Positions 24,201-27,200 of a DNA stretch of 52,313 bases are shown here, one piece after another. The first letter of the stretch is position 1; each line of letters begins with the position of its first letter. Source of the DNA: Candidatus Firestoneibacteriota bacterium (GTDB lineage Bacteria > Oederibacteriota > D2-FULL-39-29 > JBDRBU01); contig JBDRBU010000039.1 in assembly GCA_043822305.1 (NCBI GenBank), positions 1 through 52,313 on the forward strand, in the 5' to 3' direction. Made by a program: the position numbers.

Positions 24201-27200
24201 AAAACAAATTCATCTTTTTGGGAAATGATTGCTTCATTAAAAACAGAAAAATATGTTTTTGCTGCATCACCTTCAATCCCTCGTATTTCAGCTTCGCTCA
24301 TTTTGTTTTTAAGTCTTTTAATGCTTATACTTAACTCATTTATTGCCCTGCCTACTTTATCCGCGTTTATCTTATCGGAATGATCCCTTACGACCCTGGA
24401 TAATACGGTGCGGGAATTATTTATTTTTGCCATAAGTATTTCTGATGCAATTTTTGTGCAATATCCAGAATTATCAGCCAATCTGTATTGTTCCCTCCTC
24501 AACAAAACATTACCACAAACCTCTCCCCGGACACTGGCAAGAAATTTTCCATTATCATTCAAATATGTTATTGCTACAGATTTTTCCGAACAATAACCCA
24601 TAAGATGAGGCGTTATTATAGTATTTCCAAAGCAAACAATACTACTGACTGCCAATAAAGGAAATTGTACTTTTGTTTTATCTTGTTTTTCCACAACCAC
24701 CGTCTCGCCTTCTTTATGCAAATAGGAGCCAGGAGTCGTAATATATATAGTGTTAAGATATTTTCTCATTCCATCATTTTCTGAAAGTATTTGTCTGCTG
24801 AAACAGCTTTTTGTAATTTTTTTGGCATACAGTAGTTTAAAAAAGAGCATCTGTCGCATTTATTCTCTTCGTATTCTGCTTTTGAAGTAAATCCTTTCTT
24901 AATAAACTCATGTAATTCTACCGCCAACCTTGTTGTTTCTTTTCTCAATTCATCACTAAAGAAAACCTCTTCACGTCGTCTTGTTCTCCCGTAGAATATA
25001 TATCCTTTTTCTATTTTACAATTCATCATTTCCTCAAGGCAGATTGCTTGGGCACAAAGTTGAATTCTATCACAATTATCAGTCTTTGTCTTACCTCTTT
25101 TGTATTCTATGGGTGTTACAAGATCCACCCCTTTATCATTTTTGCTGTATTCAATAACATCTGCCTTGCCGATAAGTCCAAGATCGTACGACCTTATCGG
25201 CACATCTGTTTCAATTTTCACATCTGAATCGTGTTTTGATTTTCCTTTATGAACATTTTCATGCATTATCCTCCCTTCCGCTGTAAAAACATTCTCAAAC
25301 CAAATACTTTCAATGTGAATGAATGCACACTGCCTTTTGCAGTATGAATAATGCTGTATTCCGGATAAAGCAAGTAGGTCTTCATCATCGTAAATCACAA
25401 TTATTTCCCATTATGCTATTTATCATTCTTTGCCGCTTCAAGTCGCAAGCGAGCCATCCGTATTGATTCATTCAGTTTCTTTTCAAGTACTTCACGAGGC
25501 GGTAATTCTGTTAAATAATCCGCGACTCGTATACCGCTTTTTCCAAGTTCCAACAATTCCACCTGCTCATCGGATTTTCCTGCACAAAGAATCAGCCCAA
25601 GAGGATGCGATTCTCCCGGATTTCTCTCGTATTTATCCAACCATCGCAAATAAATTTCCATTTGACCTTTATATTCCGGTTTGAATTTATCCAGTTTTAA
25701 CTCTATGGCAACAAGTCTTTTTAAACCCCTATGATAAAACAGCAAATCCAGATAAAAATCATCTCCCCCTATTATCATACGTTTTTGTCTGGCAAGAAAC
25801 GAAAAACCCGTTCCTATTTCTAAAATAAATGCTTCAAGATCGCTCAATATTGCAGATTCAATATCTTTTTCCTGATAAGCGCCTTTAAGCCCCAAAAAAT
25901 CCAGAAAATATGGATCTCTAAATACAAGATCTGGCGTTAGTTTGTCCTCTTCACGCAGTTTGGAAAGTTCAATGTGGGCAAGTTTTTCCGGTTTTTTCGA
26001 CAGTGCTGTTCGTTCAAATAGCATACCGCCTATTTTTGCCCTCAGTGTTCTTACATTCCAACGCTCTATTCTGCACATTTCTGCATAAAAATCGCGTGCA
26101 AGTTGATCTTTAACCGGTAATATCTCTACAAAATGGCTCCAACTTAATTGTCGTGACAGTGTCACGACAATCTGTTCGATTGGGAAACATTCAGCAAATT
26201 TTACCATTCGCGCCAAATTGCGATCACTAAAACCATCACCATATAAAGGCATCAATTTTGCCGACAGTGTCGGCAAAATCTCCAATCCGTATTCTGCTCT
26301 TTTTTCTTTGAGTATTTCCCGTCTTATTCGGTCCCCTACATGCCAGTAAAGCATCGTTAATTCAGTATTAGCAAAGTAGGCCACCCGCCCGCGAGCAGAT
26401 TCTATAAGCCCTCGTATTTCGGATAAGATATTGCTGTTTGCAGGATTAAAAGCAGTGATCACCGCCATTTTCTTAATTCTAATATTCTTTTTACCTTCCC
26501 CTTCTATATTTTTCATTTAACTCCCCGCATTTAAGGTAATATTTTTATGCATTATCCTACCTGCGATGCAAATACATTAAAAACCAAATACCATCAATAC
26601 AAATAAAAGTGTATTTTCTTTTGAAAAAAAGCGATGTTCTATTGAAGAAAGAGAAATTTATTCCTTATCATTAACCTCATATATTATAGTTTTTCTACTA
26701 TTTTATTTGGATTATATATTTCAGGAGTAATTTCTGCAATCTTTTTCACTTTTATTGAATATTCTTCTGCTGTTTTTGGCACCTCAACTTTTGGGGCAAC
26801 TTCTAACGTTCGATGGATAACTGCAGATGAATATTGCCCTGTAGGACAATTATGTTGCCACCATATTACAGCTATGACTTCCATACTGCCTTCGGGTCTC
26901 GCAGAAGAAGCATCATTATCAAACAAATGCTCAAGCGAGTTTTTTATTGCTTTTGCATCTTCATCACTAAATCCTGTTTTTGAAGCAAGCTGTGGATTTG
27001 CAGAACCATACGATACATATAAACCATAATCAACACGGTGCTTCATTCCCATTGTATCAGATGCTTTCTTTTTACCATCCCCTTCCCCACTAACGCTTTT
27101 AGTAATTTGGATACTGCTCACTTCAATCGGTAAAACAGAAAAAGCGGGATGGATTGAAACAGGGCCGCGTATTCCGATAGAAACACTTTCTTCTGTCTGA

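Follow-up and report, generated by a model that had tools for sequence, protein, structure and literature searches.

An intact YhcG/DUF1016 nuclease gene lies inside the type I-C CRISPR-Cas operon of the window (the whole 52,313-nucleotide stretch of a Candidatus Firestoneibacteriota contig analysed here), next to a decayed second copy of the start of cas4. We consider it probable that this YhcG endonuclease gene was acquired horizontally, entered cas4 as a one-gene cassette with a long target duplication, and has a stand-alone function. The type I-C operon is complete and co-directional on the minus strand, in the order cas3-cas5d-cas8c-cas7-[YhcG]-cas4-cas1-cas2 followed by a 12-repeat CRISPR array: cas3 (HD nuclease and helicase, 30369..32864, Pfam Cas3_HD, DEAD and Cas3-like_C_2), cas5d (29565..30353, Cas_Cas5d, E 9.4e-42), cas8c (Csd1, 27620..29644, Cas_Csd1, E 2.9e-132), type I-C cas7 (26684..27598, Cas_Cas7, E 1.7e-77), the YhcG gene of 366 aa (25416..26516, Pfam and PADLOC PDC-S02), an intact cas4 (24766..25398, Cas_Cas4, E 2.6e-23), cas1 (23738..24859, Cas_Cas1, E 5e-102) and cas2 (23444..23734, CRISPR_Cas2, E 2.2e-28). 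Pfam thus confirmed the gene that an earlier note had placed between cas7 and cas4. In the array (22516..23278) a repeat search found 12 repeats of 32 nt at a spacing of 64-66 nt; it presumably also lies on the minus strand, as we take the type I-C repeat to be oriented with ATTGAAAC at its 3' end.

The 167-nt spacer between cas7 and YhcG is nearly filled by the decayed duplicate of the cas4 start (26530..26688, minus strand; cas4 nt -5 to about +156), which carries in-frame stops and aligns locally to the 5' end of cas4 with a score of 57 (z 11.6 against shuffles). Together with the functional copy of the segment, the first ~156 nt of cas4 (25243-25403, minus strand), it forms a direct repeat of about 153-160 nt, in which 107 of 153 aligned bases (70%) agree, with 79% identity over the last 62 nt. 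Among 75 I-C cas4 starts the best match of the window pseudo-cas4 is its own neighbour, with a score of 40 vs 15 for the next. The unit between the two copies measures ~1.13 kb and consists of the YhcG ORF with ~14-20 nt upstream and ~12 nt downstream; YhcG is its sole ORF, and neither an integrase nor a transposase was found in it. DNA similarity to the closest relatives ends within the ORF. On this evidence a ~1.13-kb one-gene YhcG cassette would have entered ~150 nt inside cas4 and duplicated the cas4 start, the downstream copy keeping cas4 whole whilst the upstream copy decayed; no near relative of the window's I-C locus turned up, and the long target duplication is deduced from the repeat alone. 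Promoter-like (12 vs 11.4 expected) and terminator-like sites (2 vs 2.0 expected) are not enriched; with neither signal to itself, YhcG would most likely be transcribed with the cas operon. From this dated scar one can see how genes of this kind get into an operon and leave it intact.

An event of this type would correspond to the 'insertion with long target duplication' known for restriction genes (Furuta, Abe, Kobayashi 2010, PMC2853133). In the available text of that paper, a restriction-type gene whose insert lacks a recombinase is flanked by a direct repeat of host sequence (>30 bp) which spans the translation start, so that the target gene survives, and one of the insertions lies in an operon-like structure; a mechanism was not found stated in that text. 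The window shares the >30-bp direct repeat, the absence of a recombinase, the spanned start and the intact target gene. It differs in its cargo, a lone nuclease gene without a methyltransferase, in its target, a cas gene, and in the age of the upstream copy, which here is old and decayed (70% identity) against 44/46 identical bases in the published Table 2.

A whole-genome search returned nine full YhcG_C matches over the cut-off, the number the earlier note had given, and two sub-threshold matches that represent one decayed remnant on contig C78. The nine copies are strongly divergent, as described before, with a pairwise range of 24-55% in place of the earlier 26-54%, and their flanking genes bear out the operon contexts in that description: hsdM-broN-yhcG-hsdS-hsdR (C118), hsdM-hsdS-yhcG-hsdR (C107), hsdM-yhcG without hsdS or hsdR (C48), one 811-aa HsdM/YhcG ORF (C36), trpG-yhcG-trpD (C100), moaC-yhcG-mog (C87), two glycan or methyltransferase neighbourhoods (C107a and C1) and the window. 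Four copies do adjoin hsdM, but only two of these four claimed R-M loci are complete, and the reported HsdM-YhcG 'fusion' on C36 turned out to be an in-frame deletion chimera from which ~104 HsdM and ~100 YhcG residues are gone, in a decaying locus whose hsdS is truncated. Co-direction is indeed uninformative, as the note had cautioned (0.87^9 ~0.29, from its own 87% co-directional gene triples). The relatives' trp and moa operons, whose comparison it had named as missing, have empty sites: trpG abuts trpD in 10 of 10 relatives' loci with both genes and moaC abuts mog in seven of nine. At the C48 locus, nadK abuts recN in all eight same-order relatives, and the hsdM-yhcG pair entered between them as one unit. 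The nine copies are independent arrivals: that of the window reaches 84% identity with proteins named from other phyla, vs only 24-51% with its own paralogues. The genome amounts to a compact experiment of nature, in which nine intact divergent copies lie in 2.15 Mb and relatives show a clean empty site for three of them.

Spread as a single-gene cassette, which the earlier note had suggested, is supported by the empty sites, by similarity that ends in the ORF and by target duplications round units of 1.09-1.75 kb. Locus-specific flanking repeats were found at 17 of 82 YhcG loci (15 of 80 without two repeated records) and at only one of 83 neighbouring genes of the same loci, which served as controls. 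That one control is a DUF4143 gene, and the scar is therefore not special to YhcG. The repeats are 25 to about 157 nt long and unrelated in sequence between different loci; 12 of 16 bracketed units are 1.31 kb or less by their unit coordinates, with no recombinase aboard. Within this genome a scar is detectable at only one of the nine copies: no flanking repeat was seen at the other eight (z 2.8 or less), nor round the multi-gene units on C48, C118, C107b, C36, C1 and C107a (z 1.7 or less). At YhcG genes, target duplications occur ~15 times as often as at the genes next to them, which makes the family a good model for gene mobility with long target duplication.

The relatives that share 67-84% identity with the window YhcG carry the names of Firmicutes, Omnitrophota, Acidobacteriota, Elusimicrobia and others; the neighbours of close relatives include type I R-M, AbiE, OLD, Fic, AlbA_2 and GmrSD genes. 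The association with type I R-M asserted in the earlier note is real, with R-M genes two ORFs away or less in 15 of 54 scorable close-relative loci. Distribution is patchy: the 41 genomes sampled from the phylum have 0 to 11 matches each, and YhcG is present in 18 of them; the gene is rare among phage records (14 of 50,697) and is carried on 527 of 72,556 plasmids, 197 of them conjugative. YhcG genes settle at any operon junction that tolerates them, with type I R-M operons as their commonest home.

Other type I-C loci exhibit related arrangements. A Jettenia I-C locus (L123), unrelated to the window, has the same scar architecture, with 100 of 129 bases identical (z 38), and an uninterrupted I-C locus (L131) spans both of its junctions in alignment with a 157-nt overlap. 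The duplicated cas4 pieces of the window and of L123 stop at the same His-Glu-Asn-Val codons (cas4 codon 49-51), whilst the two YhcG proteins are only 35% identical. We rejected the pseudo-cas4 as a relic of one ancient event common to both loci, since each pseudo-copy resembles its own cas4 far more than the other's. The cas7|cas4 junction holds cargo in eight of 76 I-C loci, comprising YhcG, Bro-N (three loci), Fic, HEPN/NTase and ParE; this boundary takes the same kinds of guest gene as type I R-M operons, which extends 'embedding' to CRISPR loci. None of the six non-YhcG inserts at the junction has a cas4 duplicate, and the short cas7-cas4 spacers (70-260 nt) of 18 other I-C loci hold no cas4 remnant save a weak match in L124 (z 5.3, 17 nt). 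A YhcG gene or remnant is present in only three of the 76 related I-C loci. Across all I-C operons found to carry it, YhcG occupies three different junctions: that of the window, L123 and the L052 remnant, one between cas5 and cas8c (L247) and one after cas2 (L089). No match to the window Cas7 at E 1e-30 turned up in 98 other genomes of the phylum, of which one (G012) has an I-C operon with a divergent Cas7.

The YhcG protein of the window (366 aa, or 350 aa from an alternative start at Met17) matches DUF1016_N (PF17761) along the full profile (1-137; E 1.3e-42, 145.6 bits against a gathering cut-off of 32.8) and YhcG_C (PF06250; E 2.2e-45, 154.7 bits against 32.5), and Pfam placed only these two domains, with no PrrC-type ATPase or anticodon-nuclease domain. 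The catalytic columns E...D...(E/D)-x-K are kept in all nine genome copies, E233, D257 and K274 being invariant and the position two before K274 being E or D; the part of PMC1189080 available to us relates the E-D-E(I/L/V)K motif of the family to NucS/DUF91. In an AlphaFold model (mean pLDDT 72.8), the predicted C domain (214-336) matches NucS 2vld_B with Z 9.1 and rmsd 2.7 over 92 residues, and is most likely a NucS-like PD-(D/E)XK nuclease. The N half of the model is helical, unlike the NucS N domain, and residues 55-175 match ParB 6s6h_B at Z 6.6, under the level where helical matches are trustworthy; the modelled N domain is probably helical, ParB-like and DNA binding. Foldseek against the PDB returned nothing at E 0.001 or better and a profile search of PDB sequences nothing at E 1 or better. 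The gene has a GC content of 0.394 vs 0.316 for the genome, and dN/dS of 0.09-0.10 at dS 1.7-1.9 against its closest relatives points to purifying selection. In the DNA that encodes the KDPY-LDF motif, an ATCCA...TGGAT arm pair occurs in the window copy alone among the nine.

Few uncharacterised nuclease families are as common as YhcG/DUF1016, which by the earlier note's count is present in ~16% of bacterial species genomes. The novelty that the note attached to it as a defence family does not hold, as the gene belongs to an existing PADLOC candidate, PDC-S02 (E 5.8e-125 for the window protein, with matches for all nine genome copies), and also matches the PADLOC cas-associated 'PD_DExK' model (PDLC01464, E 5.2e-38). 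The window locus is a well-documented example of a known candidate defence family and not a new system, because genes like it already figure in lists of defence candidates. PDC-S02 originated from genes nested within BREX, DISARM and type I R-M systems (preprint 10.1101/2024.01.29.577857, in whose main text, as available to us, the word 'CRISPR' does not occur). The YhcG genes here resemble PDC-S02 (COG4804; PF17761 plus PF06250) in both domains, in the catalytic motif, in their strong model matches and in nesting inside other operons, and differ in the operons that take them in, among them that of a type I-C CRISPR system and the housekeeping operons trp, moa and nadK-recN. A PDC-S02 representative was assayed in E. 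coli B against T4, T5 and T7 and, in the portion of the preprint that we could consult, is not among the four protecting candidates (10.1101/2024.09.26.614923); COG4804 is listed among restriction endonucleases in the accessible part of PMC8649781. Within the partial texts at hand, the literature on DUF1016, YhcG, PDC-S02 and COG4804 yielded neither an activity for the family nor a link to target duplication, and no literature match joined a PDDEXK nuclease with target duplication. The new observations are the cas4-start scar, the matching Jettenia scar, the excess of flanking repeats and the cas7|cas4 cargo counts. As a candidate role we suggest a stand-alone DNA-cutting defence or selfish function, which would need neither Cas nor HsdM partners.

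The earlier note had instead proposed that YhcG works with type I methyltransferases and is a new accessory of type I R-M and type I-C systems; a partnership with HsdM or with Cas proteins is not supported in this analysis. A working type I-C accessory, engaged for example in Cas4-Cas1-Cas2 prespacer processing or as a reserve nuclease for times when Cascade is blocked, would fit the 'PD_DExK' match, the position where effector genes meet adaptation genes, with no transcription signals belonging to YhcG itself, and the presence of YhcG in the other I-C operons, where recurrence at three junctions leaves room for a functional tie to CRISPR. We nevertheless think such a role improbable: tblastn of the DNA round each of the 80 closest relatives found a cas gene near none of them, the few related I-C loci with YhcG (3/76) speak against a dedicated accessory, its place within the operon varies, the same slot takes unrelated cargo, all nine paralogues match 'PD_DExK' equally in every context, and the scar marks a late insertion into a finished operon. 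We give similarly little credence to YhcG as a partner of type I HsdM, or as a second-line suicide or defence nuclease restrained by it like PrrC with EcoprrI. The R-M neighbours of close relatives, the hsdM genes that adjoin four of the nine genome copies and the insertion of hsdM-yhcG at nadK-recN as one unit without hsdS or hsdR argue for this, as does the enrichment of DUF1016 next to inverting hsdS genes (odds ratio 17), where it sits between type I core genes, in the available part of PMC9881135. That same portion of the paper already prints the linkage, which removes the claim of newness and bears out the caveat that it might have been noted before. Against the partnership, hsdM does not adjoin five of the nine genome copies or most relatives, the C36 'fusion' arose by deletion within a locus that is itself decaying, and an N6_Mtase domain occurs in only one of 61 long proteins that contain YhcG; in others YhcG is fused with pieces of HsdR or with HTH, Bro-N, ParB or RhuM domains. 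PrrC is almost always embedded in type I R-M, according to the accessible text of the preprint 10.1101/2024.01.29.577857, and two to four other genome copies are likewise nested between hsd genes; YhcG, however, has another fold and lacks the PrrC-type ATPase and anticodon-nuclease domains, and the window copy lies in a cas operon, not an hsd locus. A complex prediction for the C48 HsdM with its neighbouring YhcG scored 0.00, which, run without controls, has no bearing on binding.

As a rival to our preferred reading, a horizontally acquired one-gene cassette, YhcG might drive its own spread: a nuclease cut would be repaired by copying the gene in with a long duplication, recombinase-free and homing-like, at preferred sites such as cas4 codon 49-51. 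Two independent insertions, of YhcG genes only 35% identical, that share the His-Glu-Asn-Val breakpoint favour this, together with pseudo-copies nearest to their own cas4, flanking repeats at 15/80 YhcG loci vs 1/83 controls, small units without a recombinase and the lack of a duplicate in the six other inserts at cas7|cas4. Still, there are only two cas4 cases, the chance of one shared breakpoint within 6 nt is ~0.02, and at the other boundary a start codon has to be kept, which limits where it can fall; repeats of such varied length in unrelated targets are unlike a site-specific enzyme, the sole control with a repeat is the DUF4143 gene, and strong purifying selection with long residence (dS 1.7-1.9) fits a host-useful gene. 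The same scar is also reported for type I-IV restriction genes in the available text of PMC2853133, and we judge self-driven spread unlikely. A broader version, in which YhcG and perhaps further single defence nucleases, DUF4143 for one, insert themselves without a recombinase via break repair, seems to us unlikely too; if self-insertion were true, it would explain mechanistically how insertion with long target duplication comes about and would define one-gene mobile elements of a new class. In phages, free-standing homing endonuclease genes are single nuclease genes lodged between operon genes without breaking them, and homing leaves no long target duplication. YhcG resembles them as a lone nuclease gene between operon genes with a possibly recurrent insertion point, but it is nearly absent from phages (14/50,697) and its targets vary by locus. 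Least of all do we expect a housekeeping repair nuclease akin to NucS/EndoMS (DUF91) recruited into core operons, a highly improbable reading that the NucS-like C domain (Z 9.1, its best structural match, with the related motif noted in the available part of PMC1189080) and the copies inside trp, moa and nadK-recN operons would favour. The window protein has no match to the NCBIfam NucS model (one paralogue matches at E 0.0033) and its N domain is all-helical and unrelated to that of NucS, the empty sites in relatives also speak against it, and the patchy occurrence and the defence-island-type neighbours are those of mobile defence genes.

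The window contains a complete type I-C CRISPR-Cas locus on its minus strand, with cas3 (30369-32864), cas5d (29565-30353), cas8c (27620-29644), cas7 (26684-27598), cas4 (24766-25398), cas1 (23738-24859), cas2 (23444-23734) and a CRISPR array of 12 repeats (about 22516-23278), and between cas7 and cas4 it carries, on the same strand, a 366 aa YhcG/DUF1016 open-reading frame (25416-26516) whose Pfam DUF1016_N and YhcG_C matches are both well over the cut-offs. The 167 nt spacer between cas7 and this YhcG gene consists almost entirely of a decayed copy of the start of cas4: it spans about 5 nt before the start codon to about nucleotide 156 of cas4, shares 107 of 153 aligned bases with it (79% identity over the last 62 nt) and contains in-frame stops. 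Compared with 75 type I-C cas4 starts, the decayed copy is far closer to its own neighbour than to any other (score 40 vs. 15), so the spacer is a duplicate of this cas4. From the boundaries of this flanking repeat (score 57, z 11.6), the foreign segment is about 1.13 kb and comprises a ribosome-binding site, the open-reading frame and about 12 nt. The arrangement agrees with "insertion with long target duplication", as described for type I-IV restriction genes (Furuta et al., PMC2853133), where the long target repeats are reported to span the translation start often, so that the target gene survives, and where one case is described within an operon-like structure; the window repeat likewise spans a translation start, that of cas4.

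A full YhcG gene also lies between cas7 and cas4 in a Jettenia type I-C locus (L123), its protein sharing 35% identity with the window YhcG, and the same kind of cas4 scar is present there (100 of 129 bases identical, z 38). An uninterrupted type I-C locus (L131) aligns through both Jettenia junctions with an overlap of 157 nt, and this is a second, independent insertion of YhcG before cas4. The two loci share the point in cas4 at which the duplicated stretch stops (His-Glu-Asn-Val, codons 46-51), and both have the other boundary near the start codon, a placement that selection to keep cas4 intact would explain. The chance of one shared breakpoint in two events is roughly 0.02, and we leave the shared cas4 breakpoint as an unexplained coincidence and no result in itself. 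None of six non-YhcG inserts at the cas7-cas4 junction carried a cas4 duplicate.

The junction takes in other genes as well. Among the 80 loci closest by Cas7, cas4 lies downstream of cas7 in 76, and across these genome contigs the extrapolated spacer is <70 nt in 50 and >600 nt in eight. The long gaps hold the full Jettenia YhcG gene, a DUF1016_N fragment with Fic (L052), Bro-N proteins (L056, L076 and L077), an NTase with HEPN (L085), ParE on the opposite strand (L105) and, in L097, nothing recognisable. These are the kinds of guest embedded in type I R-M operons, and Bro-N and Fic also stand beside YhcG in the R-M and glycan loci of this genome. With such varied guests, the border that separates the effector module from the adaptation module acts as a cargo site, and the window locus is a genuine, well-resolved case of a pattern already known.

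The genome (2.15 Mb, 125 contigs, 31.6% GC) had been described as holding nine YhcG genes nested in operons, which was borne out by nine full YhcG_C matches with the neighbours reported; the copies share 24-55% pairwise identity, and in each of the nine the catalytic E...D...(E/D)xK columns are conserved. Flanking repeats were absent from the other eight (z 2.8 or less). Wherever the site could be checked in relatives, the copies are insertions. The trpG and trpD genes abut (gap 13-43 nt) in the 10 relatives' loci with both genes, and none of 29 relatives' trp loci has a YhcG match; mog directly follows moaC in seven of nine relatives' moaC loci, none of which contains YhcG; and dxs, nadK and recN are contiguous in all eight same-order relatives where NadK was found. 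At this last site the genome carries hsdM and yhcG as a pair lacking both hsdS and hsdR, between nadK and recN (L012 from contig C48, 6008-8583), at which no flanking repeat was detected. A tenth, decayed copy on C78 (L020, 7661-8084), reduced to the DUF1016_N tail plus the opening third of YhcG_C and carrying a TGA stop, lies between amine oxidase and glycosyltransferase genes, thus YhcG copies also die in place. Just upstream of trpG-yhcG-trpD on C100 (L016), trpE is split into two reading frames that switch at a nine-A run (about 5830-5870), either through assembly error or a real frameshift.

The flank test was extended to 82 YhcG loci, comprising metagenome close relatives of the window copy, copies in relatives' genomes, L123 and L089. 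Locus-specific direct repeats (score 45 or more) flank 17 of the 82 (15 of 80 after removal of the repeated records L185 and L194), a count that appears to be new and comes from a single sample skewed towards one clade of YhcG. As a control, 83 other genes coding for 250-600 aa at these loci included only one with such repeats, a DUF4143/AAA_14 ATPase gene (L251, contig C55 of relative G006, 5400-6428; score 145), DUF4143 being another PADLOC candidate family. The 14 flanking repeats inspected are 25-133 nt long, 81-98% identical and unrelated between loci, and several span the start codon. The unit between repeats, computed from coordinates, is 1.09-1.75 kb; 12 of 16 are 1.31 kb or less, at which length the insert is the YhcG gene alone, and the earlier idea of a single-gene cassette stands. 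This count and the shared cas4 breakpoint merit a dedicated survey. In L184 YhcG and the hsdS after it both draw their start codon and first codons from the repeat (4932-5007 and 6100-6178), the guest having taken over the translation start of its host gene. Two metagenome loci hold tandem pairs of divergent YhcG genes (L197, 5001-7616; L142, 194-2554), and in L197 each gene has a copy of one sequence of about 133 nt in front of it.

The best non-self relatives of the window YhcG share 67-84% identity, their named sources being Firmicutes, Omnitrophota, Acidobacteriota, Elusimicrobia, Firestonebacteria and Desulfobacterota, compared with 24-51% for its paralogues in the genome. At the DNA level the closest metagenome loci resemble the window only across the YhcG gene, dN/dS is 0.09-0.10 (dS near saturation), and GC is 0.394 vs. 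0.316 for the genome. None of the 80 loci closest to the window YhcG contains a cas gene; a type I R-M gene lies no more than two open-reading frames away in 15 of the 54 close-relative loci whose neighbours could be scored, and many others have AbiE, OLD, Fic, AlbA_2, GmrSD, helicase or integrase neighbours. Copies in same-order and same-class relatives occupy equally varied places, one in hsdM-yhcG-hsdS. Another, in a same-class relative (L247; G012:C21:71500-80000), lies in a type I-C operon between cas5d and cas8c (3990-5204, minus strand) and overlaps both, with cas7 and cas4 abutting; Cas4 and Cas1 there are 51-53% identical to those of the window, and the operon was not picked up by the window Cas7 search because its Cas7 is divergent. 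On contig C87 of the same relative, a YhcG gene that comes after trpE and a GAF-ANTAR regulator has downstream of it about 2 kb (L246, 1-2074) in which no open-reading frame reaches 60 aa. The family occurs in 14 of 50,697 phage records and 527 of 72,556 plasmid records.

The claim of the earlier note that YhcG would be a new accessory is weak, and any partnership with HsdM or Cas is putative. The family is already PADLOC candidate PDC-S02, also matching the cas-associated "PD_DExK" model, and DUF1016 enrichment beside hsdS is already in print (PMC9881135). The genes on which the PDC models were built lie embedded in BREX, DISARM and type I R-M systems (preprint 10.1101/2024.01.29.577857, from whose main text the word "CRISPR" is absent). 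A cold-seep preprint (10.1101/2024.09.26.614923) lists one PDC-S02 representative among eight candidates tested, outside the four protecting E. coli B against T4, T5 or T7. What had been read as an HsdM fusion on C36 is instead an in-frame deletion joining pieces of HsdM and YhcG: residues 6-565 align with L156 HsdM as far as position 567 of its 671, the stretch 569-810 corresponds to YhcG beginning at YhcG position 103, and the next open-reading frame is a truncated hsdS. An N6_Mtase domain occurs in only one of 61 long proteins that share a similar YhcG portion. Kosinski et al. 2005 (PMC1189080) had already tied the YhcG C domain to DUF91/NucS, with the N domain unassignable. In the AlphaFold model of the window YhcG (mean pLDDT 72.8), the predicted helical N domain (55-175) has a weak likeness to the ParB DNA-binding domain (Z 6.6, under the safe level for helical folds), and for the modelled C domain (214-336) the nearest structure is the nuclease domain of NucS (Z 9.1, rmsd 2.7 over 92 residues).
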